DNA from: a virus
Lineage: Duplodnaviria; Heunggongvirae; Uroviricota; Caudoviricetes
Virus record (IMG/VR): IMGVR_UViG_2534682158_000010
Location: 1 to 30,878 of that record
DNA length: 30,878 nt
Reading direction: 5' to 3' (one strand)
The notes under the pieces: generated by a model
What the model was told of the DNA's origin: nothing
What the model saw: only the letters and a program-made list of their open reading frames with translations
The model's database searches: none
Program-made: the position numbers and the translations under genes
Shown: positions 420 to 30,279 of the stretch, one piece after another
Position numbering within the stretch: the first letter of the stretch is position 1
How the letters are laid out: the number at the start of each line of letters is the position of its first letter

Positions 420-1451
420 ATGTCCAATTTACTGACCGTACACCAAAATTTGCCTGCATTACCGGTCGATGCAACGAGTGATGAGGTTCGCAAGAACCTG
501 ATGGACATGTTCAGGGATCGCCAGGCGTTTTCTGAGCATACCTGGAAAATGCTTCTGTCCGTTTGCCGGTCGTGGGCGGCATGGTGCAAGTTGAATAACC
601 GGAAATGGTTTCCCGCAGAACCTGAAGATGTTCGCGATTATCTTCTATATCTTCAGGCGCGCGGTCTGGCAGTAAAAACTATCCAGCAACATTTGGGCCA
701 GCTAAACATGCTTCATCGTCGGTCCGGGCTGCCACGACCAAGTGACAGCAATGCTGTTTCACTGGTTATGCGGCGGATCCGAAAAGAAAACGTTGATGCC
801 GGTGAACGTGCAAAACAGGCTCTAGCGTTCGAACGCACTGATTTCGACCAGGTTCGTTCACTCATGGGAAATAGCGATCGCTGCCAGGATATACGTAATC
901 TGGCATTTCTGGGGATTGCTTATAACACCCTGTTACGTATAGCCGAAATTGCCAGGATCAGGGTTAAAGATATCTCACGTACTGACGGTGGGAGAATGTT
1001 AATCCATATTGGCAGAACGAAAACGCTGGTTAGCACCGCAGGTGTAGAGAAGGCACTTAGCCTGGGGGTAACTAAACTGGTCGAGCGATGGATTTCCGTC
1101 TCTGGTGTAGCTGATGATCCGAATAACTACCTGTTTTGCCGGGTCAGAAAAAATGGTGTTGCCGCGCCATCTGCCACCAGCCAGCTATCAACTCGCGCCC
1201 TGGAAGGGATTTTTGAAGCAACTCATCGATTGATTTACGGCGCTAAGGATGACTCTGGTCAGAGATACCTGGCCTGGTCTGGACACAGTGCCCGTGTCGG
1301 AGCCGCGCGAGATATGGCTCGTGCCGGAGTTTCAATACCGGAGATCATGCAAGCTGGTGGCTGGACCAACGTAAATATTGTCATGAACTATATCCGTAAC
1401 CTGGATAGTGAAACAGGGGCAATGGTGCGCCTGCTGGAAGATGGCGATTAG
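420..1451 (+). CDS. cre: Cre site-specific tyrosine recombinase
   Basis: 343 aa; N-terminus MSNLLTVHQNLPALPVD and C-terminal catalytic region HSARVGAARDMARAGVSIPEIMQAGGWTNVNIVMNYI match P1 Cre as I recall it. Confidence 0.97.
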   Translation: MSNLLTVHQNLPALPVDATSDEVRKNLMDMFRDRQAFSEHTWKMLLSVCRSWAAWCKLNNRKWFPAEPEDVRDYLLYLQARGLAVKTIQQHLGQLNMLHRRSGLPRPSDSNAVSLVMRRIRKENVDAGERAKQALAFERTDFDQVRSLMGNSDRCQDIRNLAFLGIAYNTLLRIAEIARIRVKDISRTDGGRMLIHIGRTKTLVSTAGVEKALSLGVTKLVERWISVSGVADDPNNYLFCRVRKNGVAAPSATSQLSTRALEGIFEATHRLIYGAKDDSGQRYLAWSGHSARVGAARDMARAGVSIPEIMQAGGWTNVNIVMNYIRNLDSETGAMVRLLEDGD

Positions 1452-2059: not shown

Positions 2060-2620
2060 ATGAAAACAATCGAACAAAAAATTGAACAGTGCCGCAAGTG
2101 GCAGAAGGCAGCCAGAGAACGAGCGATCGCTCGGCAACGGGAGAAGTTGGCTGATCCGGTCTGGCGAGAATCTCAATATCAGAAAATGCGGGATACTATC
2201 GACCGCCGTATCGCTAAACAGAAAGAGCGCCCACCAGCCAGCAAAACGCGGAAAAGCGCGGTAAAAATAAAATCTCGTGGCTTGAAGGGGAGAACACCAA
2301 CGGCGGAGGAACGGCGCATCGCCAATGCTCTTGGCACTCTCCCCTGCATTGCCTGCTATATGCATGGAGTAATATCTAATGAGGTGTCTCTGCACCATAT
2401 CGCCGGTCGTACCGCGCCGGGTTGTCATAAAAAGCAATTGCCACTTTGTAGATGGCACCACCAGCATGCAGCACCGGCTGAAGTAAGAGCAAAATACCCC
2501 TGGCTGGTCCCTGTTCATGCCGATGGTGTGGTTGGAGGCAAGAAAGAATTCACCCTGCTGAACAAGTCAGAGATGGAGTTACTGGCTGACGCCTATGAGA
2601 TGGCAAACATCATGCACTAA
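2060..2620 (+). CDS. ref: Ref, RecA-dependent HNH-family nuclease (recombination enhancement function)
   Basis: 186 aa, matching P1 Ref length as recalled; basic N-terminus and Cys/His cluster CIACYMHG...HHIAGR...CHKKQLPLCRWHH. Confidence 0.9.
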   Translation: MKTIEQKIEQCRKWQKAARERAIARQREKLADPVWRESQYQKMRDTIDRRIAKQKERPPASKTRKSAVKIKSRGLKGRTPTAEERRIANALGTLPCIACYMHGVISNEVSLHHIAGRTAPGCHKKQLPLCRWHHQHAAPAEVRAKYPWLVPVHADGVVGGKKEFTLLNKSEMELLADAYEMANIMH

Positions 2621-2648
2621 TAAATATATTATTTTTAATGATAAATGA

Positions 2649-2679
2649 TTGACAACTGACAAGTGACTTCAGTCAGAAT
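2649..2679 (+). promoter_or_regulatory. Composite promoter: -35 TTGACA, late-promoter-like element ACAAGTGACT, -10-like CAGAAT
   Basis: Same ACAAGTGA(C/T)T motif plus downstream hexamer is found upstream of prt and lyz; fits the dual (sigma70 plus late) promoter described for P1 mat, as recalled. Confidence 0.5.
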
Positions 2680-2809
2680 CATCACATGCCCGGTACGGAT
2701 GGATCCCTTTTCAAATATTCCATGGACGGCACAGTCTGAGTACCGGGCGCTACCTTCAGTTGTATTGCTAAGCCGCCGCTGGTGGCTTTTCTTTTTTGTA
2801 GGGGGCGCT

Positions 2810-3451
2810 ATGGATAAGAAAATATGCGTTGTTTCGATGAGCGTCGGCAAACCGGCGTCAATGACTGCTGCATGGATCAATAACGAGCTGATAATGGCTG
2901 AGCGGACCAGCTACCCTGAACGCCGCCGCGATATGGAACTCCAGCTGCTGCGCGAATTGCGAGAAAAAGAGGAAAAGGGTTTTATCGTGCTGGTGGAAGA
3001 GGAAAACAGCTTTATTACTGGTCGAGTTGGCCAGCGTGTAAGGTTGCGCGATCCCTTCATGAACGGCAGGCCGGTACTGATTGAAGCAATGCAGATTTAC
3101 AAGGAGCTGGAACGCCAGAAAGCGATCAAGTTACCGCGCAAGGAATCCGGCAAATACATCCTCCACCAAAGCATCTTCGATTCCGAACACGATAAAAAAG
3201 GCGATGAATTTTTCAACATCAACTGGAGCGAAATAACGACAGAGCATGTTCTGACGTTACTATGTTGCTTTGCGACGGAATACAACAACGTTGCCAGCGC
3301 CGACTACATCAGGGCAATGGCTGGAGAAGTTGAAGCCCGCCAGGAACCATCGTTACTAAGTCCACTTATTAACATAATTCTGGGTACCCAGACACTGGAA
3401 CAAAAAAAAGTGCCGAAAGGGGTATTAACAGGCAAGCATAATTATTTCTAA
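2810..3451 (+). CDS. Hypothetical late protein, possibly the particle-maturation (mat) homologue
   Basis: ATG at 2810 preceded by AGGGGG; the six-frame ORF nominally starts at GTG 2663 inside the promoter; no recognisable motif. Confidence 0.55.
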   Translation: MDKKICVVSMSVGKPASMTAAWINNELIMAERTSYPERRRDMELQLLRELREKEEKGFIVLVEEENSFITGRVGQRVRLRDPFMNGRPVLIEAMQIYKELERQKAIKLPRKESGKYILHQSIFDSEHDKKGDEFFNINWSEITTEHVLTLLCCFATEYNNVASADYIRAMAGEVEARQEPSLLSPLINIILGTQTLEQKKVPKGVLTGKHNYF

Positions 3452-3461
3452 TAATTTATAG

Positions 3462-3530
3462 TGGGGACTTTTGATGGTGTAAAACCCCATGAATTATTAT
3501 TTTTTAGTTTTTTGATTCTATTTTTTTTTG
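3462..3530 (+). terminator. Putative terminator: bulged hairpin followed by a long T-rich tract
   Basis: GGGGACTTTT...AAAACCCC stem then multiple T runs; begins 11 nt after the 2810 gene stop. Confidence 0.35.
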
Positions 3531-3618
3531 CATTACCCGTCATAAAAATGAGCTTGCTTACATAATAGAAAATTATTTTATCAACACTATTACAACAAAC
3601 GATTATCACTGATAACAT

Positions 3619-3642
3619 GAGTCCTTTGAAAACAAAGGACTC
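3619..3642 (+). promoter_or_regulatory. Perfect 10-bp inverted repeat (GAGTCCTTTG-AAAA-CAAAGGACTC) in the GNAT gene leader
   Basis: Lies 9-32 nt upstream of ATG 3651; its 3' arm contains the only SD-like AAGGA; a second palindrome TTATCA-C-TGATAA at 3603-3615. Confidence 0.4.
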
Positions 3643-3650
3643 ACCATACT

Positions 3651-4259
3651 ATGTCTAATACCTCGGCAAATGAAATTGTACCGCACTTACCGCTAATTTT
3701 CGAAAATGAAGCTAATGGGATTCTTCAGGATCTGGCCTATACTCCATCGCTTATGGGGTTGATGATGTTCCCGACAGAAGAGGAGCTGAAAGCAGCGAGA
3801 AGCTACATAATTAACGTTTTTGAAGAGTGTTACCGAGCCGGTCATTTGCGCATTATGGGCTTTACTAATGAAGAAAACTTGTTCGGATACGCCTTAATCT
3901 TCGGACATCCATCGGGAAATTTTCCGTTGTACTGTCATAAAATATATGTATATGAGCAATATCGTGGTAATGGACTTGGAAGTAATATACTGGCAGAAAT
4001 ACTTGCATTTCCAAATGAGGTCGCTTTGATTTGCCAGTCTGATTTGGTTCCTTTTTATGAATCAGCCGGAATGCACTTTAAAGGAAATTACACCACTCCA
4101 TCAGTCGCCAATTTCAAAAAAACTCGCGGCATGTATGAGGGGCTTTGTTTGATGAGCACTGAAAAAAATGCAAACTCTAATGGTGTACCTATATTCATGC
4201 TGAACGATAACGATATTGATAACATCATACAGGCTATCGCATCATCGGCACCACGATAA
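3651..4259 (+). CDS. GNAT-family N-acetyltransferase (202 aa), substrate unknown
   Basis: Acetyl-CoA binding motif YRGNGLGSNILAEIL and motif-B-like VPFYESAGMHFKG; gene and flanks visibly AT-rich relative to neighbours. Confidence 0.8.
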   Translation: MSNTSANEIVPHLPLIFENEANGILQDLAYTPSLMGLMMFPTEEELKAARSYIINVFEECYRAGHLRIMGFTNEENLFGYALIFGHPSGNFPLYCHKIYVYEQYRGNGLGSNILAEILAFPNEVALICQSDLVPFYESAGMHFKGNYTTPSVANFKKTRGMYEGLCLMSTEKNANSNGVPIFMLNDNDIDNIIQAIASSAPR

Positions 4260-4341
4260 TATTAATAATTCATCTCGCCGCAGGAACTACAAACCAGTTG
4301 ATTGTTTGTGAAACGCCCGGTGCAAACCGGGCCAACAAAAC

Positions 4342-4590
4342 TCAATCAGCATTGAGAAGCAATGCATTATCTATGATGATCTGCTCCCATTCTTCGAATG
4401 CCCGGTCGCGGACGCCCTGGGGAACACTGTTTGTTTTGAAATCGACGACTGTACGCCATTTCCCGTCCGGACGGTACATGCGCAGAGCTTTACTTCCCCC
4501 TTCCCTGCGCACCTCAACGTTATGCTTGTCAGCAAACTCTTGTAATGCTCGTAGCGTCCCATGCTTTACTGTGTAGTATCGCTTTTTCAA
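4342..4590 (-). CDS. lxc: Lxc (Bof)-like C1 co-repressor, 82 aa
   Basis: 82 codons with TTG start and GGAG SD, matching my recollection of P1 bof/lxc; located downstream of the ulx-like gene and darB as in P1. Confidence 0.65.
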   Translation of the reverse strand: MKKRYYTVKHGTLRALQEFADKHNVEVRREGGSKALRMYRPDGKWRTVVDFKTNSVPQGVRDRAFEEWEQIIIDNALLLNAD

Positions 4591-5027
4591 GTTTTCTCTC
4601 CAGCCTGTGCCAAGGCTTCAACTTCCAAATCGTAAGACTCAAACTCATAGTCCTGGTCGTCAACTTCTTCAGGCACTGGCAGTAAATGCCAGGCTGAGTA
4701 TATCTGACCATTATCAAAACGCTCCTGGCTGTAGAGCGTCGCGGCTATGAGTGTTAGCGCCGGGCGGTCATAACGGTAAATTTTGCGAACGTCACGGTCA
4801 ACGAGACGACCGAAATTACCATAACCGCGCTCCAGTAATAATTTTTTAATTTCCGGCCAGTATGGACCATAGCTGCGGTACAGGCGGGGATTTTTCAGTA
4901 ATCGCCCGCGTAGCCCTGACAGGAAGAAATCAACGTATTCGTCTTCTGTCTTTCCTAACAACGCTGTACGGAGTACCGCCTCAAGATATGTTTTATTCGG
5001 TTTTATTGTATCAGATAGTGTGGCCAT
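4587..5027 (-). CDS. ulx: Ulx-like protein (146 aa) between darB and lxc
   Basis: Position between darB and lxc; stop overlaps the lxc TTG start; no motif recognised, assignment by synteny only. Confidence 0.55.
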   Translation of the reverse strand: MATLSDTIKPNKTYLEAVLRTALLGKTEDEYVDFFLSGLRGRLLKNPRLYRSYGPYWPEIKKLLLERGYGNFGRLVDRDVRKIYRYDRPALTLIAATLYSQERFDNGQIYSAWHLLPVPEEVDDQDYEFESYDLEVEALAQAGEKT

Positions 5028-5060
5028 ATTATGCGACGCCCGGCGAACCGGGCGCTCCTG

Positions 5061-8000
5061 TTATGCGTATTGTTGGATGACGGCCAGAACGTCCGCCACG
5101 TTGTGTTTTGTCTCGATAATCCACCAGTTACCTGGGAAGTCGCTGTTCTTCGCCTTCGCTGGCAACCAGCGAGCGCCGAATTTCGCCTTGATTGCGTCTT
5201 TCGCACGGAAAAGAACCCCTTTCATGCCGGAGGCTTCCTGAAGCCCAAATACCTCGCCAGCGGCGAATTTTGGTGCGTACATCATCTTCAGGTCGGCGGT
5301 GGATACGCGATAATTCAGACCAAGAGACTGAGCTATGCTGGTGGCATCACCCTGTATTGATGATAACTCTTCTTGTTTCTCGTTTCTGGCAGCAATTTCT
5401 TCCTCCGTGATGTTGCCAAGGGCCAGGTTTATCCGATCAGCGTCTGCCTGTTTCTCTTCATCGGTGCGCCCGGCAAGTACCGTGTTAATTCTGTGCAATA
5501 TCTCCACATGATTCTTGCGCATGCTGAGCAATTCCGGCGTAACCTCGTTAAGGTCCACCAGCCCAAGGATGGCAAGGTCGGTAAACATTGATACCAGGTT
5601 GTAGGTCATGCGATAGCTGAGTTGCCCATAGGCTGATGGCAACTGCACCGCATCCATTTTATAGGCATCCATAAATTTAGAGCCGTCGTTTACGACATCC
5701 GCAATTGCCGGTGTGATTTTTCCTGTGGTGGCGGCCTCCCTGATTGCTGTTACCCACGATTGAGTCAGCGCGGCGACTGCATGATTCAGATTGACTTTCC
5801 GTTCTGCTGCAATGCGCGCGCTTGCTGCGTCCATTGCCTGCTTGATCTCGTCTTTATTGCTGTAAATGCCAATGGTGCCAAACTGTGCTGTGGTGATCTC
5901 ATAATCTGACGCCCGGAACTCATTGGTACCGAAAATGGCATTGGTGACTTCAAGTTCAGAATCCCCGTTACGAGTAGCCCCCTGGCTTGTTTTCTCCGGC
6001 ATTCTGGCGATCGCATCCGCTATTTTCTCCTGAATTGCTTCAGGGGATAGCGTATCTCCGTATGACGCGATTACATCGCCATAATTGGAGCCAAACAGTT
6101 CAACCAGGAATGCTTCTGCCGAACGGATCTGGCGGTTATTCCCTTCCGACATCATACCAAGCACCCATTTTGCAATTGACGACTTCAGCGCGCCGTCACG
6201 GCGATCCGGGTAAACCGCATGCTTCAGTGGGTCCGTATAGGTACCAACAAAATCAATGCTATAGCCTGACTCTGTAGTCTGAACGCCGTATGAGTCAGTG
6301 ATTTTGATCATGCCGCGCTGCTGGAAACGGTAGAAATCGTCACAGGAAACGATGTCGTTAATCCCGGCGATGGAGACGCCACCACTGATTTTCTGCATAA
6401 CAGCATCTTCATCGGGAGTTACATCAACCTGTTTATCCAGCGTCTTCACATCCCAGTTACCAGATTTGGTGCCTTTGAAGGTGAAGATGATCTCCACGTC
6501 TGCGCGCTGGCTGTCGAAGTCCAGCGACTTAATGCGAACGATATCACCGGCACAATCGTAGTATTGGCCTACACGCCATGAGCGATCGCCGATAACAAGG
6601 AACTCACTCGCATGGTTAACCAGGTCAGGATCAACATCCAGAATGCCTTTATTTAATGCATCCTCCACCAGCGGGCGCAGGCGTTTGATATCCGTCGCGG
6701 CCTTCTGAGTACGGTTCAATAATTTCTCATAGCGGGAGATGGCTTGAGAGATATTAGCCTTGCGCTGAATGGCGCTTTTCAACGACGCGCGATACTGTGC
6801 TAACAACATACGGTCTGTGTGATGGACGCTACCCCAGCGGGCTTTCCAGTCTGCGTTATCAGCTGCTTTGGCCATTACCGCCTGTTTGAATTTGGCGACG
6901 TCGGCGGTGGTCTTTTCAAGTTCCGCTTTGCTTCGCTCCAATTCAGCGGTAAGTACCTCCACATCCTCACCAGCTGCGTGCTGCGCCTTGATGTAGTTCT
7001 GAAGGTCGATAGTAGCCTGTTCTTTCTGGCGAGCGCGTTTCGCAGCTTTCGCCTTATCCATTTGAACCTGCATCATTGCCAGACGTTCGCCGTCATCCTT
7101 CGCGGTATACATCTGCATTTCGATCATATCGTTGGCGTCGGCGTTCTCCATTTCTGACTTATCTGAACGGAGGATATCGGAGATCCAGCCTGCTTTACGC
7201 TTCAGCGTCTTCAGTCGGTATTCATCGAAAGACCCCTTGCCGCAGTAGTAGTGAACGCGAACGCTTGCACGGTTGGAGCCAACTCGGGCACCGCGACCGT
7301 TTCGTTGCGCAATACTGGCTGGAGTCCATGGCAACGTCAGATGATGGATGTCAGTCGTTCCTCGATGCAGGTTGATACCCACCTCTGCCTTTTTGTTGCA
7401 GATGATGATCGGAGTCCGGCCCTCCTGGAAGTCGGCTGCAATCTTTTCCAGACCGCCCAACGACATTTCATTTTGCTGCGCGATATAGGCGTCATACAGA
7501 GCCATTTGCTCGTTGTATTTCGCTATCTGTGCATCTGTTGGTTCATCCGGTAACTCTTTCGGCGGTTTAACCGCTTTCAGTTTCTTACCGGTTTTACCTG
7601 CCTCGGCAACCGTCTGAGCATTCAGTATCCCCACCTTTGAAGGTTCAAGGTTAAGAGCATTGCAGATAATGCGCTTGAGCTTCTGGTGCTGCGTTTTTTC
7701 ATCGGTGAAGATGATTTGCTTACCTTCCGGGAAAAACTCCTTCAGCGTGGCAATCAGCTTCGCGTATTTGGGCGTAACGGGGTGAGTTACGGTCTGTTCG
7801 TCAATGCCAAACCTGGCCAGGCGCTTATTCACTTCCTGCTCGAACGCTTCCGGAACCTGCAACTGAATAAACTCGCCCTTATCTATCAGGGAGTATTGCG
7901 ATTGCTGCGTGATTGAATCATCACTGTCGTCGTCTTCGCTGGTGGCTTGTTTAGGCAAACTGTCCGCCAGCTGCTGCACCGCATCGGCGTACTCCGGCAG

Positions 8001-11000
8001 GAAACGATAGGTGATCCGGCGATAGTACAGGTCCATGTCAGTACATACGCGGTCCATATCCCTGATTATTGAGAAGATCGGACGGGCTTTCTCGTGCTCA
8101 ATCACGCCGTCTTCATTGACCGAGGTCGTTACGCCATTGTTGGCTTTGGCCGCCGCTTCCGCCTGCTGACGCAATTCTTCATACGCCGCCAGTTGTTCTT
8201 CAGTAAGTGGTGCATCCTGCTGGTGTTCGTCCAGCTCCGGGATCTCCACGGTATCCTTAACGTCTTCCGCCGTTTTAAGCGTTACCCAGCGATGGAATAT
8301 ACCGCGCAGCGCATCAAGGTTTTCAAAGCCCACCAGCGCCATTTTTTCTTCAACTTCACCGCTAATTTTCTGTACCGTTTCCAGCCTGGTCTTGCCGAAG
8401 AATTTAACGAAGTCATCAGGACCGTAGATCCCCATGTTCTGCCAGTATTCCTTCGGCAGAACATGAGAAAGCATGTTGTATGCATCGATCGGGGTGTTAA
8501 CGACTGGCGTTGCAGTCAGGAGAACCGGCCCGCGCCCACCATTCTTTTTCATCAGGTACGCGTTTTTAATTGCCATATCTCGCGCCGATTGCGCCACCGC
8601 GCTGGTGGGCAGATAGGCCAGTTGTGACGCTTCGCGACCATTTTTATAGCTATTGCGGTAGTTGTGACCTTCGTCAGCGATCACACTATCGAAGCCCATA
8701 TCCTCAAAGTACGGATACTTCTCTGCTTTTTCGGTGCCGGTATCTGAATACTCCGACAATACCCGGCGACGCGCGGCCTCTTTGCGGTGGGAGTCGGAGT
8801 CCATTGCGCTGGCTACGCGTCCGGCGGCAACGAAGTCATAAAGCATATCCTGTGCATGCTCATCTACGGTGTCATCACGTAGCGGAATGCGGGCGTATTG
8901 TTCTTTGGTAAACACGACTGCACGGTAATTTGAGTGCGGGATCGCGTTCATCCGCGCCGTGATAGTGGCTTCATCTGCCAGCTTAAGAGCATCGCGCATA
9001 ACTGGAGTGCCATCAGTACCAAGAACAGGTTTACCGTTCTCATCGAGCACCTGCACCTGGCGAATCTGATCGCCATCCATCAGCACATCAAGACCGACGA
9101 ACAGGTAGTTACTGAATGCCTCTTCACTCAGGAATTCTTTTGCTTCGTAATACCAGTTTTCCAGCACTGATTTAGGCACTACATACGCAGTACGGGTGGA
9201 GCGACCGTTCTCATAGTTGAACGCCTCAAGCGCCAGCGCGGTCGTGGTTTTACCCAGCCCGGTGCCGAAGCCCAGGATGCCGCGCCCATCTTCGGACAGT
9301 CGGCGCACCTCGCTATTCTGGTAATCAAATGGCTGGCGCTTACCGCTTAATCCCTTCAACCCAAGCGGATCGCCAGAGTGTTCATACGGGATATTGCTAT
9401 TGAACACATCGTTGTATTTAGCAACCAGCTCATCGTAGCGATCGTGCGTCTTGATCCACTTATTGAACTGGTCCTCAAGCAGTGCCATCTGCTCGCGGTA
9501 GCCGTTCGCCGTCGCGCTATCTTTGCCACCGATACGCGCACCATTGAGATACTTTTCCAGCTGTGCCGGGAACCCGGTCGCGTTTTCACCTGATTTACGG
9601 TCCCACTCGTAGCGGATCTCGCCTGTTTCTTTATCCTTACGCTGGACGACACCGTATCGGTGCCCGACGAACAGGCCATCACCACCGTGATAGGTGTCAG
9701 AAACCATTTCGTCGCCTTCCAGCTGCACTGACTGCACATAGCGCAGATCCGGATAGCCGTTTTCCTGCAAAAACTCCAGAATGACGGAACGGTCGAACCA
9801 ACGGCTATTGAGCTTAAAGCGGATATTCTCTGCTGGCGTCTTGATGCGCTTCTCTTCGATCGCTGCCAGCTGATTAAGGACGTTGTTCTTTACTGGACCG
9901 TCGGGGAGCGTGGCGAGGAATTCCTGTTTTGGAGCCACTATCTCGTTAATGTCGCCGCTGGTGGCGCGGGCGAACGGAACAATCCCGCCATACGGTGAAA
10001 CCGCAATGCCAGGGGTGCTGGCCAATAAATTAAGCAACTCGTCATCACTGGCTGGCAGTTCGCCGGTAAACGCAAGGCGGAAATCATCGAGCTGGATTGG
10101 ATCGCGAGTGAGATCACTGTAGAGATAACGCAGGGTGTCCTGATAGCTGGTGGAGTCATAACTGGCGCTGGAATCATGCGTAACCAGTTTTCCTGTCAGC
10201 TCGTCAGAAATAGTGCCATCCAGCTTAATTGCACCACGGAAAGCAAACCAGGCGCGCGCACCGCTCCCCGATAATTTCGCTATCGGACCGCGACCGGGGT
10301 TACCAAAACGGTCAATCTCTGCCTGCAAACGGGATACCAGAGAAAGGCGCTGCTGTTCGATTTGTTCAGCACTATGCCCGGCGGCCTTCATGTCCTGATA
10401 TTCAATTAACATCCGGCCAATCATCGCCCCGCGATACAAGCGTTCACGGTATTTTTCAGGCTGGCTGTTAATCCAGTCCACCAGCTGCACCATATCGTCG
10501 CTGATTGATGTGGTGTACTTATCGCGGACATTTGCCATCTGGGTAAATGTCATGCCGAGACGGCCTTCTGTTGTAGTCAGGTTACGCTGAAGAGCCTCCC
10601 AGCTATCCGCGCCATAACTGGCAGCATCGATCTTAAGTTCCTTCCCTGCATCAGCTTCAATCCAGCGACCACCAGCATATTTTTGCCATACGCCATTAAT
10701 CAGGCGCATTTCCCCTTCACCAACAACGTCTGCGGTCGGTGACGGTTCAGCCATATCGAGCAAAGACCAGTCGATACGGCTTTCGAAACGATGAATCAGC
10801 TTCGCTTTAAGAGCCTGGTTATCAATCTGACCGTCGGCACGAACCTCAATACGCCCCTGGAAGCCCTTTTCCTGGGTGCCATGAACAAACCGGCGGCCGT
10901 CCTTTTCAAACCACTTGCCAGAAATAAACGTTGGCCAAAGCACATTTGCCGATTCGAGAGTGCTTTCATCCACCAGGGGGATTTTCTCAGCCATCTCTGC

Positions 11001-11828
11001 CGGATGTTTGCGCATCAGCACCACATCAACAACTGTACTGGTCCCGTTTGCGTCAAAAGTACCGGTAGGCAAGCGGTGGGCACCAAGAAATTCAGCTTTC
11101 CGTGATAGGCGCAGGCGTAACCGTTTCATGTTTGAACCTGAAACAATGGACGGCGGCACAATCACACACATGAATCCGCCAGGTTTTATCTTGTCCAGCA
11201 TGCGGAGCATGAAGTAAGACCCCATGTCCGTTTCTTCTGCGTAAGGCTTATCGATGTTGCGTGTGTTATCACGACCGCCGAACGGAACGTTACCCACAAC
11301 ATGGTCGAATGAATCGTTAGGCGTGTTTATAGCCAGCTGTTCGAACGGGGAAATCTGTACGCTGTCTTCCGGGTGTAACAACTGGTTTATACGACCGGAA
11401 ACACTGCTGATCTCAGTCGCGGTCATCACCGTACCAACCGGTTTTGTCTCATTAAAAACGCCGGTTCCCGCCGATGGTTCCAGAGTGTTACCTACGTCCG
11501 CGCCGTAGAGCTTCATGATCTCCCAGACACCTTCAGCGATAGGCTTTGGTGTGTAATATTCGGAGACGGACCCGCCAATGCCGCCTTCACCAGTGTACCC
11601 GGCCAGGATCTGGCGCTGTTCATCTGTCAGTGTCGCGCCGTCCACCAGCGAATTAAGCAAATCTATCGCCTTCTGATTCGCCTCCCGGCGCAGTCGGTCA
11701 TAGCTTTTGCCTTCCACCTTTTCCACGCCGTATTTAATCGGCGCTCGGTGAGATGTTATTGCCCTAATGTATTTCAATATTTCGCTGACACTTGAACAGC
11801 GAAACACACCCATAGATAGCTTGTTCAT
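5061..11828 (-). CDS. darB: DarB, large antirestriction protein with N-terminal methyltransferase-like and SF2 helicase domains
   Basis: 2255 aa, matching P1 DarB length as recalled; MTase-like motifs LEPSAGTGVF and NVPFGG; Walker A GFGTGLGKTT and DEGH box; AAGGA SD. Confidence 0.95.
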   Translation of the reverse strand: MNKLSMGVFRCSSVSEILKYIRAITSHRAPIKYGVEKVEGKSYDRLRREANQKAIDLLNSLVDGATLTDEQRQILAGYTGEGGIGGSVSEYYTPKPIAEGVWEIMKLYGADVGNTLEPSAGTGVFNETKPVGTVMTATEISSVSGRINQLLHPEDSVQISPFEQLAINTPNDSFDHVVGNVPFGGRDNTRNIDKPYAEETDMGSYFMLRMLDKIKPGGFMCVIVPPSIVSGSNMKRLRLRLSRKAEFLGAHRLPTGTFDANGTSTVVDVVLMRKHPAEMAEKIPLVDESTLESANVLWPTFISGKWFEKDGRRFVHGTQEKGFQGRIEVRADGQIDNQALKAKLIHRFESRIDWSLLDMAEPSPTADVVGEGEMRLINGVWQKYAGGRWIEADAGKELKIDAASYGADSWEALQRNLTTTEGRLGMTFTQMANVRDKYTTSISDDMVQLVDWINSQPEKYRERLYRGAMIGRMLIEYQDMKAAGHSAEQIEQQRLSLVSRLQAEIDRFGNPGRGPIAKLSGSGARAWFAFRGAIKLDGTISDELTGKLVTHDSSASYDSTSYQDTLRYLYSDLTRDPIQLDDFRLAFTGELPASDDELLNLLASTPGIAVSPYGGIVPFARATSGDINEIVAPKQEFLATLPDGPVKNNVLNQLAAIEEKRIKTPAENIRFKLNSRWFDRSVILEFLQENGYPDLRYVQSVQLEGDEMVSDTYHGGDGLFVGHRYGVVQRKDKETGEIRYEWDRKSGENATGFPAQLEKYLNGARIGGKDSATANGYREQMALLEDQFNKWIKTHDRYDELVAKYNDVFNSNIPYEHSGDPLGLKGLSGKRQPFDYQNSEVRRLSEDGRGILGFGTGLGKTTTALALEAFNYENGRSTRTAYVVPKSVLENWYYEAKEFLSEEAFSNYLFVGLDVLMDGDQIRQVQVLDENGKPVLGTDGTPVMRDALKLADEATITARMNAIPHSNYRAVVFTKEQYARIPLRDDTVDEHAQDMLYDFVAAGRVASAMDSDSHRKEAARRRVLSEYSDTGTEKAEKYPYFEDMGFDSVIADEGHNYRNSYKNGREASQLAYLPTSAVAQSARDMAIKNAYLMKKNGGRGPVLLTATPVVNTPIDAYNMLSHVLPKEYWQNMGIYGPDDFVKFFGKTRLETVQKISGEVEEKMALVGFENLDALRGIFHRWVTLKTAEDVKDTVEIPELDEHQQDAPLTEEQLAAYEELRQQAEAAAKANNGVTTSVNEDGVIEHEKARPIFSIIRDMDRVCTDMDLYYRRITYRFLPEYADAVQQLADSLPKQATSEDDDSDDSITQQSQYSLIDKGEFIQLQVPEAFEQEVNKRLARFGIDEQTVTHPVTPKYAKLIATLKEFFPEGKQIIFTDEKTQHQKLKRIICNALNLEPSKVGILNAQTVAEAGKTGKKLKAVKPPKELPDEPTDAQIAKYNEQMALYDAYIAQQNEMSLGGLEKIAADFQEGRTPIIICNKKAEVGINLHRGTTDIHHLTLPWTPASIAQRNGRGARVGSNRASVRVHYYCGKGSFDEYRLKTLKRKAGWISDILRSDKSEMENADANDMIEMQMYTAKDDGERLAMMQVQMDKAKAAKRARQKEQATIDLQNYIKAQHAAGEDVEVLTAELERSKAELEKTTADVAKFKQAVMAKAADNADWKARWGSVHHTDRMLLAQYRASLKSAIQRKANISQAISRYEKLLNRTQKAATDIKRLRPLVEDALNKGILDVDPDLVNHASEFLVIGDRSWRVGQYYDCAGDIVRIKSLDFDSQRADVEIIFTFKGTKSGNWDVKTLDKQVDVTPDEDAVMQKISGGVSIAGINDIVSCDDFYRFQQRGMIKITDSYGVQTTESGYSIDFVGTYTDPLKHAVYPDRRDGALKSSIAKWVLGMMSEGNNRQIRSAEAFLVELFGSNYGDVIASYGDTLSPEAIQEKIADAIARMPEKTSQGATRNGDSELEVTNAIFGTNEFRASDYEITTAQFGTIGIYSNKDEIKQAMDAASARIAAERKVNLNHAVAALTQSWVTAIREAATTGKITPAIADVVNDGSKFMDAYKMDAVQLPSAYGQLSYRMTYNLVSMFTDLAILGLVDLNEVTPELLSMRKNHVEILHRINTVLAGRTDEEKQADADRINLALGNITEEEIAARNEKQEELSSIQGDATSIAQSLGLNYRVSTADLKMMYAPKFAAGEVFGLQEASGMKGVLFRAKDAIKAKFGARWLPAKAKNSDFPGNWWIIETKHNVADVLAVIQQYA

Positions 11829-15607: not shown

Positions 15608-15624
15608 ATTGCTCTAATTAATTT
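15608..15624 (+). promoter_or_regulatory. C1 operator-like 17-mer ATTGCTCTAATTAATTT upstream of ssb
   Basis: 16/17 match to ATTGCTCTAATAAATTT; 20 nt upstream of the ssb GTG start. Confidence 0.55.
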
Positions 15625-15643: not shown

Positions 15644-16132
15644 GTGGCACAACGCGGTGTAAACAAAGTCATCCTGATTGGTACCCTGGGGCAAGACCCG
15701 GAGATCAGGTATATACCAAATGGCGGAGCGGTCGGAAGACTCAGCATCGCAACGAATGAATCATGGCGCGACAAGCAAACGGGCCTACAGAAAGAGCAAA
15801 CAGAATGGCATAAAGTCGTTTTGTTCGGAAAACTTGCTGAAATTGCGAGTGAGTATTTACGAAAAGGTTCTCAGGTCTACATCGAAGGGAAACTTAAAAC
15901 CCGTAAGTGGACAGATGACGCCGGTGTAGAACGTTACACGACGGAAATTATCGTCAGCCAGGGCGGCACCATGCAAATGATCGGCGCTCGCCGTGACGAT
16001 TCACAGTCCTCAAATGGCTGGGGGCAATCAAACCAACCTCAAAACCACCAGCAATACAGTGGTGGCGGTAAACCTCAGAGCAACGCCAATAACGAACCTC
16101 CAATGGACTTTGACGACGATATTCCGTTTTGA
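15644..16132 (+). CDS. ssb: Single-stranded DNA-binding protein
   Basis: OB-fold region nearly identical to E. coli SSB ([16 protein letters not shown]...[15 protein letters not shown]...); acidic tail DFDDDIPF; GTG start. Confidence 0.95.
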
Positions 16133-25541: not shown

Positions 25542-26114
25542 TTACAGCTCAGATTGAGTTTGGCGCTTCTCTACAGGATGATAACGATAAATCGTCGATA
25601 CACCGATATCGTAAATAATTGCCAACTGTTTCCTGCTGTAGCCATTTTCGATCAACCTCGCTATTTGCTCATGTTGTTCTTTTGTCAACTTCGGGCGACG
25701 TCCGCCAATGCGTCCCTGTTCGCGTGCAGCTGCCAGTCCGGCCAGTGTTCTCTCAACAATTAATTCACGTTCCATTTCTGCTAAAGCACCCATGACATGA
25801 AAAAAGAAACGCCCCATGGGTGTTGATGTGTCAATACTGTCTGTCAGACTACGGAAATTAACACCTTTTTCCCGCAACTCCTCTATAAGCGTGATAAGGT
25901 GTTTCATACTTCTGCCAAGCCTATCCAGCTTCCAGACAACCAGCGTATCTCCTTCTGATAACGTTCTGAGCAGCTTTTTCAAGCCTGGTCTGGCTGACTT
26001 TGTTCCGCTTATTTTATCTTCAAAAATCAGTTCACATCCTGCGCAGTTCAGTGCATTTCTTTGTAAATCTGTGTTTTGGTCATTTGTTGACACACGAATG
26101 TAGCCAATTTGCAT
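25542..26114 (-). CDS. Gin/Cin/Min-family serine DNA invertase
   Basis: 190 aa from ATG 26114 (AGAGG SD); catalytic motif IGYIRVSTNDQ, conserved core VVWKLDRLGRSMKHL...SLTDSIDTSTPMGRFFFHVMGALAEMERELIVERT, C-terminal HTH. Confidence 0.93.
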   Translation of the reverse strand: MQIGYIRVSTNDQNTDLQRNALNCAGCELIFEDKISGTKSARPGLKKLLRTLSEGDTLVVWKLDRLGRSMKHLITLIEELREKGVNFRSLTDSIDTSTPMGRFFFHVMGALAEMERELIVERTLAGLAAAREQGRIGGRRPKLTKEQHEQIARLIENGYSRKQLAIIYDIGVSTIYRYHPVEKRQTQSEL

Positions 26115-26168
26115 GAAAAACAACCTCTTTGTTTAGTTAAAAATACATCGTTGGTATAGGTAGGGATT

Positions 26169-26194
26169 AAGACTAAAACGTTGGTTTGGGGGAA
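26169..26194 (+). other. Invertase crossover site s1 (26 bp), at the 5' end of cassette B'
   Basis: AAGACTAAAACG-TT-GGTTTGGGGGAA; fits the Gin-family 12-2-12 architecture. Confidence 0.7.
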
Positions 26195-26653
26195 GGCTCA
26201 GCATTGCCCGTTGGCGTGCCCGTTCCGTGGCCCTTAGAAACACCACCAACGGGCTGGCTGAAATGCAATGGTGCAGCATTTTCTTCTGAAAAGTATCCAA
26301 ATCTGGCAAAGGTTTACCCCACCAATAAATTGCCGGATTTACGCGGTGAGTTTATTCGCGGCTGGGATGATGGGCGGGGGATTGACTCTGGCCGTAATTT
26401 ATTATCTGCACAGAATGATGCAATTCAGAATATTGTTGGTTCTTTCGGGCGTACTCAGCTTTTTAGAGATGTACTTAGTTCAGGGCCATTTAGTCAACAT
26501 GGTCAAGTATTATCTACAGGCCTAAAGGAAACGGAAATTATTGAGGGTTATGGCGCTTATAACTGGACATTCGACGCCTCTCGCTCAGTTCGTACAGCAT
26601 CTGAAACCCGCCCACGCAACATTGCGTTTAATTACATCGTAAGGGCAGCATGA
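26186..26653 (+). CDS. Silent tail-fibre C-terminal cassette B' (tail-collar domain)
   Basis: No genuine start (in-frame with the crossover site); conserved N-terminal GEGSALPVGVPVPWP...LPDLRGEFIRGWDDGRG and C-terminal RPRNIAFNYIVRAA. Confidence 0.75.
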   Translation: MGEGSALPVGVPVPWPLETPPTGWLKCNGAAFSSEKYPNLAKVYPTNKLPDLRGEFIRGWDDGRGIDSGRNLLSAQNDAIQNIVGSFGRTQLFRDVLSSGPFSQHGQVLSTGLKETEIIEGYGAYNWTFDASRSVRTASETRPRNIAFNYIVRAA

Positions 26654-26672
26654 AAACGTTGGTTTGGGGGAA
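26647..26672 (+). other. Invertase crossover site s2
   Basis: AGCATGAAAACG-TT-GGTTTGGGGGAA; spans the stop codon of cassette B'. Confidence 0.7.
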
Positions 26673-27167
26673 GGCTCGGCGCTGCCCGTTGGCGTGCCTG
26701 TTCCATGGCCCTCAGCCACACCGCCAACGGGGTGGCTGAAATGTAACGGAGCAGCATTTTCTTCTGAAAAGTACCCAAATCTGGCAAAGGTTTACCCAAC
26801 GTTAAAATTACCTGATTTACGCGGTGAGTTTATCCGTGGTTGGGATGATTCGAGAGGGATTGATACAGGGCGTTCATTGCTAAGTGGTCAGACTGCAACA
26901 TTTATTCGTACAGCTTTGCAGGATTATTACGGTGTCGATCTGACTACTAATGTCAAAGTAGGTATCGCTTATGCTACTGCTGATTCTGTTATAACTGTTG
27001 GAAACCCTGCTAATCCTAAAGCAGGAGATAATAGCGATTATGTTCCAGCATCAGCAGATAACTCCATAACAGGCACTCAAAGGACGGCAGAGGATAATTT
27101 TACCGGGGCATGGATATCAATGCGCCCCCGCAACGTTGCTTTTAATTACATTGTAAGGGCCACATAA
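26664..27167 (+). CDS. Silent tail-fibre C-terminal cassette E
   Basis: Same conserved ends, unique central region (QTATFIRTALQDYYGVDLTTNVKVGIAYATADS...). Confidence 0.75.
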   Translation: MGEGSALPVGVPVPWPSATPPTGWLKCNGAAFSSEKYPNLAKVYPTLKLPDLRGEFIRGWDDSRGIDTGRSLLSGQTATFIRTALQDYYGVDLTTNVKVGIAYATADSVITVGNPANPKAGDNSDYVPASADNSITGTQRTAEDNFTGAWISMRPRNVAFNYIVRAT

Positions 27168-27186
27168 AAACGTTGGTTTAGGGGAA
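27161..27186 (+). other. Invertase crossover site s3
   Basis: CACATAAAAACG-TT-GGTTTAGGGGAA. Confidence 0.7.
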
Positions 27187-27207
27187 GGCTCGGCGCTGCC
27201 CGTTGGC

Positions 27208-27675
27208 GTGCCTGTTCCATGGCCCTCAGCCACACCTCCAACGGGGTGGCTGAAATGCAATGGTGCAGCATTTTCTTCTGAAAAGTACCCAAATCTGGCA
27301 AAGGTTTACCCAACGTTAAAATTACCTGATTTACGCGGTGAGTTTATCCGTGGTTGGGATGATGGGCGAGGGATTGACTCTGGTCGCTCTATTTTAAGCG
27401 AGCAAGGATATGCAACGGAGGATCATGCTCACGGATTACCGTCAAAATCAACCGTAGCAACTGACCGCTCAATTAATTTCTACTTTGACGAGGCATGGGC
27501 TACTAGTGGTAATACGGGAGTTATCAGATGGGGGAACACAAGCGATGCAGGATTGCCAGCCCCTAATTATGGAACTTTTAAAACATATAAACAGTCCGTA
27601 GCTAATTTAGGTACTGCTGGCTTAGAAACCCGCCCTCGTAATGTTGCATTTAATTATATTGTGAGGGCGGATTAA
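27208..27675 (+). CDS. Silent tail-fibre C-terminal cassette D
   Basis: Open frame actually begins at the crossover site near 27175; unique central region (GYATEDHAHGLPSKSTVATDRSINFYFDEAW...). Confidence 0.75.
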   Translation: MPVPWPSATPPTGWLKCNGAAFSSEKYPNLAKVYPTLKLPDLRGEFIRGWDDGRGIDSGRSILSEQGYATEDHAHGLPSKSTVATDRSINFYFDEAWATSGNTGVIRWGNTSDAGLPAPNYGTFKTYKQSVANLGTAGLETRPRNVAFNYIVRAD

Positions 27676-27680
27676 TTATA

Positions 27681-28292
27681 TCAACTGGCTGTAGAAAGTT
27701 GTTTTTCAGGCCAGTTGAGATCTGGTGCCGTGGTTAAATCCATCGCGTTCAGCTCGTCTATATAATCTAGCACGGAGTTAAGCTGTGTGGTTTCTGCCTG
27801 CGTCAACTTCCGTCCAGCCTGTAATTTCAACTGAATCAGACTAATGGAAGCCATCGCAGTATCAATCAATGACTGACGTTTTGTTTCTGCTGCCTCTACA
27901 GCTGCACTATGTTGAGCCTCAGTATCAACCACCCATTTCTCTCCATCCCATTTGTCGTATGGTGTTAGCGGGGCGATAGTGGTTGTATTTTCCGGATAGT
28001 CACCCAACACCGTGATTTCTTCGGGATTCCCAGTGTCAATGCTATAGACAGTTTCGCCACGATGATCTGGCACATACTCCCATGAACTTAAATCCTCTGA
28101 ACGGAGAATCGCATAACCTGCTTTATGTGAGCCTGGAGCATCCAAACAAGAATTTGCCGGAATACCAACGCCAACAGCAAGATATTCAGTTGATGCAGAA
28201 ATATATTCCCGATTACCACCATCATAGTTATAAACGATAATGTTTCCTGCCTGTATGGCTATAAGTTCGCTATTTAATATCGCATTATCCAT
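27681..28292 (-). CDS. Tail fibre assembly protein (Tfa / U-like chaperone)
   Basis: 203 aa; C-terminal region LIDTAMASISLIQLKLQAGRKLTQAETTQLNSVLDYIDELNAMDLT typical of Tfa proteins; start overlaps cassette C stop (TAATG). Confidence 0.85.
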   Translation of the reverse strand: MDNAILNSELIAIQAGNIIVYNYDGGNREYISASTEYLAVGVGIPANSCLDAPGSHKAGYAILRSEDLSSWEYVPDHRGETVYSIDTGNPEEITVLGDYPENTTTIAPLTPYDKWDGEKWVVDTEAQHSAAVEAAETKRQSLIDTAMASISLIQLKLQAGRKLTQAETTQLNSVLDYIDELNAMDLTTAPDLNWPEKQLSTAS

Positions 28293-28750
28293 TATGCTGC
28301 TCTCACAATATAATTGAAGGCAATGTTACGTGGGCGGGTTTCATTCCCCCCAGATAACTCCGTTCTGTATTGACTGGTAAATTTACCATTAATCGCTCCT
28401 TCTTGGACGGCGTTATCTGTCGACAACAGACTATCCCCCCCTCTGTCATTTGGCACCAATACCGTGTTATCCCACGCGTCCCATGACCGAATATTATGAT
28501 AATGACTTCCTGTTAACCACCCCTGTATGCTTAAGATGCCCCTTCCCGCATCCACACCTCGCCCATCATCCCAACCACGGATAAACTCACCGCGTAAATC
28601 AGGTAATTTTAACGTTGGGTAAACCTTTGCCAGATTTGGGTACTTTTCAGAAGAAAATGCTGCTCCGTTACATTTCAGCCACCCCGTTGGTGGTGTGGCT
28701 GAGGGCCACGGAACAGGCACGCCAACGGGCAGTGCCGAGCCTTCCCCCAA
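28292..28750 (-). CDS. Silent tail-fibre C-terminal cassette C, translationally coupled to Tfa
   Basis: Conserved ends; unique centre (GWLTGSHYHNIRSWDAWDNTVLVPNDRGG...). Confidence 0.75.
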   Translation of the reverse strand: MGEGSALPVGVPVPWPSATPPTGWLKCNGAAFSSEKYPNLAKVYPTLKLPDLRGEFIRGWDDGRGVDAGRGILSIQGWLTGSHYHNIRSWDAWDNTVLVPNDRGGDSLLSTDNAVQEGAINGKFTSQYRTELSGGNETRPRNIAFNYIVRAA

Positions 28751-28767
28751 ACCAACGTTTTCATGCT
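28742..28767 (-). other. Invertase crossover site s4
   Basis: Plus strand reads TTCCCCCAAACC-AA-CGTTTTCATGCT. Confidence 0.7.
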
Positions 28768-29267
28768 GCCCTTACGATGTAATTAAACGCAATGTTGCGT
28801 GGGCGGTTTTCGTTTGCAGTTGGAACAATTTTTGAAGCATCAAGGCCAATCACTTTTGGGTAAACAGCGCCGTCTGTCCTTTCTGTCACCATACTTCTGA
28901 CTAAGGAAAAATAACTATTGTTTGTTGAGGGAGTTAAAGGCACCACTGCCCCCTTAAACGAGCCTACTGATTCCCATATTGAATAATTTTCAGTATTTAC
29001 AGTCTTGAACTCACCATAGATATTACGTATGGCATCACCTTGAGCGGATAATATTGTTCTCCCCGCATCCACACCACGTCCGTCATCCCAGCCGCGAATA
29101 AACTCACCGCGTAAATCCGGTAATTTATTGGTGGGATAAGCCTTTGCCAGTTCTGGGTATTCTTCAGCAGAAAAAGCTGCTCCGTTGCATTTTAGCCAGC
29201 CTGTTGGCGGAGTGGCTGAGGGCCATGGAACAGGTACGCCAACAGGCAATGCTGAGCCTTCCCCCAA
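28761..29267 (-). CDS. Silent tail-fibre C-terminal cassette A' (near-identical copy of A)
   Basis: 168 aa; differs from cassette 29756..30262 at 2 residues. Confidence 0.75.
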   Translation of the reverse strand: MGEGSALPVGVPVPWPSATPPTGWLKCNGAAFSAEEYPELAKAYPTNKLPDLRGEFIRGWDDGRGVDAGRTILSAQGDAIRNIYGEFKTVNTENYSIWESVGSFKGAVVPLTPSTNNSYFSLVRSMVTERTDGAVYPKVIGLDASKIVPTANENRPRNIAFNYIVRAA

Positions 29268-29284
29268 ACCAACGTTTTCATGCT
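29259..29284 (-). other. Invertase crossover site s5
   Basis: TTCCCCCAAACC-AA-CGTTTTCATGCT. Confidence 0.7.
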
Positions 29285-29745
29285 GCCCTTACGATGTAAT
29301 TAAACGCAATGTTATGGGGGCGTGTTTCAGATGCTGTGCGAACTGAGCGAGAGGCGTCGAATGTCCATACAGAAGCACCATATCCTTCAATGATCTCAGT
29401 TGGTTGTAAGCCTACTGATAATATAGAGTCAGTTTGACTAAATGGTCCTGAATTAAGCGCATCTTTAAAAAGCTGAGTACGCCCAAAAGTGCCAACTATA
29501 TTCTGAATAGCGTCAGACTGTGCAGACAGTAGGTTGCGCCCATTATCAACGCCCCGTCCGTCATCCCAGCCGCGAATAAATTCGCCCCGTAAATCCGGTA
29601 ATTTATTGGTGGGGTAGGCCTTTGCCAGATTGGGGTACATTTCAGAAGAAAATGCTGCACCGTTACATTTCAGCCACCCCGTTGGCGGCGTGGCTGAGGG
29701 CCATGGAACGGGCACACCAACGGGCAGTGCAGAGCCTTCCCCCAA
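29278..29745 (-). CDS. Silent tail-fibre C-terminal cassette B
   Basis: 155 aa; divergent paralogue of B' (26186..26653); C-terminal motif carries H in place of R (ETRPHNIAFNYIVRAA). Confidence 0.75.
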   Translation of the reverse strand: MGEGSALPVGVPVPWPSATPPTGWLKCNGAAFSSEMYPNLAKAYPTNKLPDLRGEFIRGWDDGRGVDNGRNLLSAQSDAIQNIVGTFGRTQLFKDALNSGPFSQTDSILSVGLQPTEIIEGYGASVWTFDASRSVRTASETRPHNIAFNYIVRAA

Positions 29746-29762
29746 ACCAACGTTTTCATGCT
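29737..29762 (-). other. Invertase crossover site s6
   Basis: TTCCCCCAAACC-AA-CGTTTTCATGCT. Confidence 0.7.
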
Positions 29763-30262: not shown

Positions 30263-30279
30263 ACCAACGTTTTCATGCT
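30254..30279 (-). other. Invertase crossover site s7
   Basis: TTCCCCCAAACC-AA-CGTTTTCATGCT. Confidence 0.7.

Follow-up and report, generated by a model that had tools for sequence, protein, structure and literature searches.

The stretch of viral DNA analysed here (IMG/VR record IMGVR_UViG_2534682158_000010), referred to as the window and numbered over its whole length of 30,878 nucleotides (nt), is a portion of a P1-like phage-plasmid. Positions 3452-4341 of the window are the exact gap between the convergent stop codons of mat, the late gene for maturation control (ending at 3451), and lxc, which encodes a modulator of C1 (ending at 4342), and this gap holds a gene encoding a GNAT family N-acetyltransferase of 202 amino acids (aa). 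The interval forms a cargo ('moron') cassette, self-contained and about 0.9 kb long, in a hotspot between mat and lxc, as indicated by its conserved flanks, the existence of an empty-site reference, its atypical GC content, a predicted promoter of its own, a 3' hairpin and its dispensability.

The mat-lxc interval and its GNAT gene

The GC content of the interval is 38.1%, compared with a mean of 48.9% for the window, making it the lowest-GC 890-bp stretch of the window and placing it in the bottom 0.6% among sliding windows. The original prediction, made from the letters of the window, placed a low-GC GNAT gene in the slot where P1 carries its type III restriction-modification (R-M) genes, and the open reading frame (ORF), the GC content and the comparison with P1 and P7 all agree with this. 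It also proposed that res and mod are missing from the element, which is borne out by the lack of any res/mod-like ORF elsewhere in the window. The non-coding DNA on both sides of the gene had been described as AT-rich, which holds for the upstream spacer (28% GC), a sequence specific to this allele of the cassette, but not for the downstream spacer (45% GC); strong AT-richness is thus limited to the upstream side. No Rfam match was obtained in positions 3300-4700 (E <= 1), and no tRNA was found in a tRNA scan. The sole ORF of the upstream spacer, an antisense one of 56 aa (3448-3618), was rejected as a gene, being located in 28%-GC DNA and not conserved in the other GNAT allele.

Comparative alignment of the leader revealed a putative extended -10 element, TGATAACAT (TGnTAAYAT), that precedes the start codon by about 33 nt. 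This element is invariant in 8 of 8 aligned contexts, which include the P1 slot, a prophage, an IncFII plasmid, an integrative and conjugative element (ICE) and genomic islands, indicating that the gene travels with its own predicted sigma-70-type promoter. Scanning for consensus promoters and terminators gave weak, non-specific matches only, and the extended -10 element was identified from the alignment instead. The best match to the C1 operator consensus upstream of the gene has five mismatches, compared with four for the authentic operators Oref and Omat, and was given no weight as a sign of control by C1.

The leader also contains a perfect 11-bp hairpin with a 4-nt loop, which includes the Shine-Dalgarno sequence AAGGA and has a predicted folding energy of -17.5 kcal/mol (z = -6.1, with 0 of 200 shuffled sequences as stable). 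This hairpin is allele-specific, its fold not being seen in the homologous leaders of other contexts, and the upstream spacer as a whole has no homology to the spacer of a GNAT allele of 86% identity in pNADC1036IncYphage (L002). A transcript starting about 7 nt past the -10 element would begin within the 5' arm of the hairpin, which would consequently form only in read-through transcripts, such as those from the mat late promoter. This arrangement suggests that transcripts started at the gene's own promoter may be the only ones translated. Downstream of the gene, a GC-rich hairpin (GCCCGGT-GCAA-ACCGGGC) without a good T-tract lies between the convergent stop codons, with a fold z of about -2.6 to -2.7 on both strands, and may serve as a terminator in either direction. 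It was not called in the consensus terminator scan. A similar hairpin with other stem bases is present in the L002 allele, and GC hairpins with T-runs are found 3' of the gene in other contexts.

Table 1. Positions of the features discussed in the text, given in window numbering unless another record is named
Feature	Position	Strand	Basis or remark
cre	420-1451		P1 and RefSeq annotation
c8	between cre and ref in gene order		
ref	2060-2620		
mat	2810-3451	+	P1 and RefSeq annotation; left conserved flank of the hotspot
Upstream spacer, non-coding	3452-3650	.	
Putative extended -10 element	3610-3618	+	Comparative alignment
Leader hairpin with Shine-Dalgarno sequence	3618-3643	+	
GNAT family N-acetyltransferase	3651-4259	+	Pfam, RefSeq, PDB identity
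Downstream spacer	4260-4341		
GC-rich hairpin	4315-4332	.	Candidate terminator
lxc	4342-4590	-	P1 and RefSeq annotation; right conserved flank
ulx (Ulx-like anti-restriction component)	4587-5027	-	P1 and RefSeq annotation
darB (2255-aa methyltransferase/helicase, defence against restriction)	5061-11828	-	P1 and RefSeq annotation
Near-consensus C1 operator	15608-15624		One mismatch
ORF in ssb-like position	15644-16132		
Cin-type serine invertase	25542-26123	-	Resolvase and HTH_7
Three paralogous cassettes	26186-27675	+	
Tail-fibre assembly gene	27681-28292	-	
Six paralogous cassettes	28292-30767	-	
res of P1	3544-6456 of NC_005856	-	
DUF4145 protein, between ref and mat	2318-3040 of pNADC1036IncYphage (L002)		
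ISApl1-mcr-1-pap2-ISApl1 transposon	4211-8496 of pHYEC7-mcr1 (NZ_KX518745.1)		Inside the GNAT gene
Pseudomonas hydrophobic ORF	10584-11393 of L035		
Pseudomonas hydrophobic ORF	8907-9716 of L036		
Pseudomonas hydrophobic ORF	10584-11393 of L037		
Pseudomonas hydrophobic ORF	8014-8796 of L025		
95-aa ORF, Serratia phage-plasmid	7721-8008 of L010/L031		

Exchange of cargo between mat and lxc

The window was aligned with P1, P7, SJ46, RCS47, JL22, MH422554 and another plasmid that carries the GNAT gene. Homology between the P1-like elements (blastn) ends at positions 3322-3453, depending on the element, which corresponds to the 3' end of mat, and restarts at the lxc stop codon, the position being 4344 for seven of eight compared elements and 4330 for JL22; the right junction of pHYEC7-mcr1 was not assessable. 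Past the right junction the P1-like elements are 96.6-98.6% identical. At the left junction, identity within mat is 96-100% upstream and drops to 56-77% in the final 80 nt, and the 3' end of the gene (3322-3451, the last ~40 codons; ~80-130 nt) is homologous yet mosaic and strongly diverged, which looks like a divergence gradient leading into a recombination hotspot. Every slot occupant was observed to bring its own Mat C-terminus.

The mat-lxc interval is a hypervariable cargo hotspot of P1-like phage-plasmids. Canonical P1 (NC_005856) has no GNAT gene at this position, but res and an IS5-interrupted mod, and P7 has the EcoP7 res/mod genes, both encoding type III R-M. The slot of SJ46 and many Escherichia coli plasmids encodes a 373-aa RelA/SpoT protein identical to PDB 7ZTB (CapRelSJ46), a prophage-encoded anti-phage system that has been experimentally proven (PMC9712102). 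Other occupants are a 434-aa SIR2 protein matching the PADLOC PDC-S25 and ThsA models, present in various plasmids; a 346-aa DUF2971 protein matching the PADLOC candidate PDC-S31, present in MH422554; a 316-aa PIN_12 protein matching the PADLOC candidate PDC-S34, present in JL22; and a two-gene YaaC module with no PADLOC match, present in various plasmids. The slot of RCS47 is empty, with 39 bp between the stop codons, and the GNAT gene occupies the slot in the window and about 20 plasmids. The eight alternative slot states thus include two proven defence systems and three that match PADLOC candidate or SIR2 models.

The principle of a hotspot with exchangeable cargo was already known, as res-mod has been published as a low-GC variable region in P1-like elements (PMC9603915, PMC6906374). 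A 2025 survey counts type III R-M and CapRel among the defence systems of P1-like elements, their location not being given. The GNAT gene had also been annotated before, and a structure of its product deposited. A second cargo site is indicated one gene away from the slot, where a 240-aa DUF4145 protein is encoded between ref and mat in pNADC1036IncYphage (L002). This insert accompanies the plasmids with the GNAT allele of 86% identity and has no PADLOC match.

The protein, its relatives and its distribution

The 202-aa protein exceeds the Pfam gathering cut-offs of Acetyltransf_10 (27.3 bits; cut-off 23.6) and Acetyltransf_1 (25.6 bits; cut-off 20.7) and falls just under that of Acetyltransf_7 (25.3 bits; cut-off 27). 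The RefSeq name for the identical gene is 'GNAT family N-acetyltransferase' (WP_000072647.1), as is that of PDB entry 9S30, in which residues 31-232 of chain A (232 aa) are 100% identical to the protein. An in-frame TGA precedes the ATG in the window, and the 30 extra residues of 9S30 must therefore be a tag. The fold library searched comprised entries up to 8 April 2026, 9S30 not being among them. No paper on the GNAT occupant, WP_000072647 or PDB 9S30 was found in the literature searched, and this protein is not mentioned in the iLund4u hotspot preprint.

The AF2 model of the protein (pLDDT 88) has the mixed beta-sheet of the GNAT fold, with the splay between beta4 and beta5. The motif A loop (R/Q-x-x-G-x-G) is intact, reading Y104-R105-G106-N-G108-L-G110-S111, and none of R105, G106, G108, G110 and S111 varies among 19 homologues with identities as low as 43%. 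The same homologues share an invariant motif B (L-V-P-F135-Y136), Y94-C95-H96-K97, C60, C128, much of the N-terminal helix and the C-terminal motif P180-x-F182-x-x-N185-x-x-D188. The top non-self match of the family profile against PDB sequences is serotonin N-acetyltransferase (AANAT, E = 5e-5), in an alignment covering about 75 residues in which H96 corresponds to His122, C128 to Cys160 and LVPFY136 to LVPFY168. His122 and Tyr168 are catalytic residues in serotonin N-acetyltransferase.

The similarity to AANAT (PDB 1CJW, 1B6B, 1KUV, 1L0C) is a resemblance in the layout of catalytic residues, as far as these can be aligned, and not family membership: about 75 of the 202 residues align, His120 of AANAT is replaced by Tyr94, the long helix at the N-terminus (residues 4-28) is peculiar to the family, as are the helix and motif at the C-terminus, and the GNAT gene is located on bacterial mobile elements. 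Polyamine acetyltransferases follow AANAT in the profile search, and members of this group (human SSAT1/2, SpeG, PaiA and the Enterococcus faecalis spermidine acetyltransferase) are among the top Foldseek and profile matches. They share the GNAT fold and an acidic character with the protein and act on polycations, but the similarity is weak (E 3e-4 to 1e-3, TM 0.38-0.45), and they are chromosomal housekeeping enzymes, whereas the GNAT gene is confined to plasmids in E. coli.

The protein has a net charge of -9 and a pI of 4.95, and values across the family range from -6 to -15 and from pI 4.5 to 5.5, a family-wide acidity that would suit a cationic substrate. The gene is under purifying selection, with a dN/dS of 0.14-0.17 between alleles and orthologues, at dS 0.6-1.1. 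From these data, the protein is probably an active acetyl-CoA-dependent N-acetyltransferase, and it probably acts on a cationic amine.

The family comprises 91 clusters at 90% identity, all of about 190-210 aa and without fusions, in Enterobacterales, Pseudomonas, Plesiomonas and Methylophaga. It was matched by 57 of 1.84 billion 50%-identity cluster representatives at E <= 1e-10, weaker matches being to generic GNAT cores only, and is carried by 8 of 185,579 species-representative genomes. It is thus a rare, acidic, single-domain family almost confined to the mobile elements and defence islands of gammaproteobacteria. Its contexts include a Raoultella lambdoid prophage, where it forms a moron transcribed against its neighbours; a Serratia phage-plasmid; a Klebsiella IncFII plasmid, beside repA and with McrBC nearby; an Enterobacter mori island with two NACHT genes; a Pseudomonas aeruginosa island with DUF4942 and HipBA; Pseudomonas islands with AbiJ and Gabija; a locus in which DSR1 is directly adjacent, starting 63 bp downstream; an ICE with a Dcm methylase; and a locus adjoining an LPD38 polyvalent protein. 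The family therefore recurs in defence islands and in the defence hotspots of mobile elements, and neighbours in six loci match PADLOC models (Dsr1, GajA, UzuA, AbiJ and MADS proteins).

No neighbouring gene is conserved across 11 contexts in an all-against-all BLAST of neighbours. A membrane-like protein of 243-270 aa was considered as a partner and rejected, as it is present in four of six closely related Pseudomonas loci and absent from the enterobacterial contexts and the window. In these Pseudomonas loci the hydrophobic protein, which appears to span the membrane several times, is encoded 44-120 bp downstream of GNAT and has no Pfam or PADLOC match. The GNAT homologue of the Serratia phage-plasmid is overlapped at its start, over 8 nt, by a 95-aa ORF for which neither Pfam nor PADLOC gave a match and which was not found in the other contexts.

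The flanks of the slot were matched by 707 PLSDB records, 21 of which (~3%) cover at least 80% of the query and therefore carry the GNAT gene. Searching 5,426 complete E. coli genomes gave 19 matches, 12 at 97-100% identity and seven of the allele at 86% nucleotide (84% amino-acid) identity, and all of these are plasmid-borne, with none on a chromosome. The gene is therefore not a housekeeping gene in E. coli, as the original prediction required, and no housekeeping homologue was found. No match to the GNAT DNA was found in 50,697 phage records at blastn sensitivity. There are at least 19 near-identical intact copies, and the plasmids derive from humans, pigs, cattle, poultry and flies, with E. 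coli, E. fergusonii and Salmonella as hosts. In the published phage-plasmid pHYEC7-mcr1, the colistin-resistance transposon ISApl1-mcr-1-pap2-ISApl1 is inserted in the GNAT gene, at the equivalent of window position 3936.

Possible roles of the GNAT gene

A role in defence or exclusion is the leading reading on the basis of genomic association, and is put forward tentatively. In the form that we consider possible, and again favour with caution, the gene would encode a lysogen-expressed, partner-free N-acetyltransferase that serves as a conflict gene, most likely by excluding or aborting other phages. The position of the gene, the alternative occupants of the slot, the restriction of the family to mobile elements, its neighbours in defence islands, its autonomy and purifying selection all agree with this. 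Expression in the lysogen would proceed from the extended -10 promoter, and the enzyme would act alone, with His96 as the catalytic base and Tyr136 as the acid, as in AANAT. It would acetylate a primary amine on a positively charged target, which could be a phage or host protein or a small molecule resembling a polyamine or an arylalkylamine, and infection by other phages would thereby be excluded or aborted.

CapRelSJ46 offers a comparison within the same slot, as it is also a single + strand gene with the same flanks, but it is a RelA/SpoT pyrophosphokinase that acts on tRNA and has a defined sensor/antitoxin domain. The type III R-M systems EcoP1I and EcoP7I are likewise low-GC accessory cargo of this slot (PMC9603915), but differ from GNAT in consisting of two genes over about 5 kb on the opposite strand, in targeting DNA and in having no sequence relationship to it. 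A bolder version of the defence reading, which we regard as unlikely, is that GNAT is the founding member of a class of single-gene, GNAT-based anti-phage immunity, acting as a stand-alone sensor-effector. The family-specific N-terminal helix and C-terminal motif would then gate the active site, like the C-terminal domain of CapRelSJ46; infection would lead to the acetylation of a phage component, or of a cationic metabolite or protein on which phage growth depends; and the hairpin at the ribosome-binding site (RBS) would limit translation to transcripts from the gene's own promoter.

Several points weigh against a defence role. It rests on guilt by association, and the cargo in hotspots of temperate phages can equally consist of anti-defence, resistance or metabolic genes. 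No PADLOC-DB v2 model matches GNAT at E <= 1, its PHROG family (phrog_10454) is listed as 'unknown function', and we know of no established single-gene GNAT anti-phage system that would serve as a precedent. The structural and sequence neighbours of the protein are generic small-molecule or protein GNATs, which give no pointer to a substrate. For an enzyme that is made constitutively and has neither sensor nor partner, the substrate would have to be phage-specific or the regulation built in. The immediate neighbours of the slot, ulx and darB, are anti-restriction genes, and some relatives adjoin genes of the kinds usual in the leading regions of conjugative elements or in polyvalent proteins (DUF4942, LPD38). 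Finally, the insertion in pHYEC7-mcr1 indicates that GNAT is dispensable for the element.

The relatives of the protein could instead indicate a non-immune enzyme of lysogenic conversion, which would acetylate a small-molecule amine and provide the host with detoxification or resistance, with antibiotics, toxic analogues of amino acids, polyamines and arylalkylamines of the gut (tryptamine, tyramine) as candidate substrates. In profile and fold comparisons its nearest characterised relatives are small-molecule N-acetyltransferases, namely AANAT, the spermidine/spermine acetyltransferase SSAT, SpeG, PaiA, phosphinothricin and methionine-sulfoximine acetyltransferases, the tabtoxin resistance protein and AAC(2'), and the acidic surface fits cationic small molecules. 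A constitutive lone enzyme with its own promoter is the usual layout of a resistance gene, the slot has also taken up mcr-1, and P1-like phage-plasmids are known carriers of resistance genes. This alternative is nevertheless somewhat unlikely: no NCBIfam model, resistance models included, rises above noise (best E 0.05-0.12, 12-13 bits, compared with cut-offs of 86-171), the PLSDB resistance predictor leaves GNAT unflagged in 22 plasmids carrying it, the rare and patchy family recurs beside defence genes and not in integrons or resistance regions, and all identifiable alternative occupants of the slot are conflict-related. The proximity of ulx and darB and some of the ICE contexts would agree with a counter-defence enzyme, which would acetylate and thereby disable a host immune protein or an immune signalling molecule, in the way that AcrVA5 acetylates Cas12a. 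AcrVA5, a GNAT-fold anti-CRISPR protein whose counter-defence role is the opposite of the defence role favoured above, consists of a minimal domain of about 95 aa and is no more similar to the protein than generic GNATs are, and we consider this explanation rather improbable.

The original prediction inferred a cargo swap at a defence locus and regarded the gene as a candidate for exclusion, defence or a toxin-like function. The swap is supported by the conserved flanks and the alternative occupants, but the toxin-like function is disfavoured, there being no antitoxin gene, an acidic protein and no specific similarity to GNAT toxins. GNAT toxins (TacT, AtaT, KacT, ItaT) stop translation by acetylating aminoacyl-tRNA, and a toxin of this type could form an abortive-infection or addiction module, with its antitoxin fused, lost or encoded elsewhere. 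Plasmids and prophages often carry such toxins, and phage defence is among the functions of toxin-antitoxin systems. The toxins share the GNAT fold, carriage by mobile elements and a possible role in abortive infection with the protein; the slot also holds the fused toxin-antitoxin CapRelSJ46; the conserved N-terminal helices and the C-terminal P-x-F-x-x-N-x-x-D motif and helix lie outside the GNAT core and are possibly regulatory; the strong RBS hairpin would hold translation low; and the ORF overlapping the GNAT start in Serratia could be cited in the same sense. GNAT toxins are, however, basic, with a tRNA-binding surface, and adjoin an antitoxin gene (RHH or DUF1778) that usually overlaps them in an operon, whereas the slot GNAT is acidic, is 202 aa long and includes extra helices, resembles them specifically neither in sequence nor in structure, and lies beside a non-coding 199-bp upstream spacer with mat and lxc as neighbours, which makes a toxin very improbable. 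An inert passenger left in a recombination hotspot would account for the ISApl1-mcr-1 interruption in pHYEC7-mcr1 and the empty slot of RCS47, but is hardly credible given the strong purifying selection, the catalytic motifs invariant in 19 sequences, the conserved promoter element and the number of near-identical intact copies.

Elsewhere in the window, a Cin-type serine invertase gene is accompanied by about nine paralogous cassettes of ~480-520 bp each, three on the + strand and six on the - strand, which encode ORFs of 152-168 aa with a phage tail-collar domain in all three of those scanned. A tail-fibre assembly gene is also present, and 16 pairs of long inverted repeats link the + and - cassette sets. 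Positions 25542-30800 look like an expanded multi-cassette invertible host-range segment, unlike the simple C-segment of P1. A near-consensus C1 operator, ATTGCTCTAATTAATTT, was found just upstream of an ORF in the ssb-like position.

E. coli, Salmonella and their relatives commonly carry P1-like phage-plasmids, which spread resistance and immunity genes between strains. Recognition of the mat-lxc interval as a precise exchange slot provides a short, bounded list of candidate immunity genes, one of which, CapRelSJ46, is already a textbook immune sensor. GNAT is one of the slot occupants without a match to any known or candidate defence model, and is small and partner-free, with intact catalytic residues and a deposited crystal structure. 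Should it protect against phages, bacterial immunity would gain acetylation as an effector chemistry; should its target be a small molecule, it would be a new enzyme of lysogenic conversion that is spreading on phage-plasmids.

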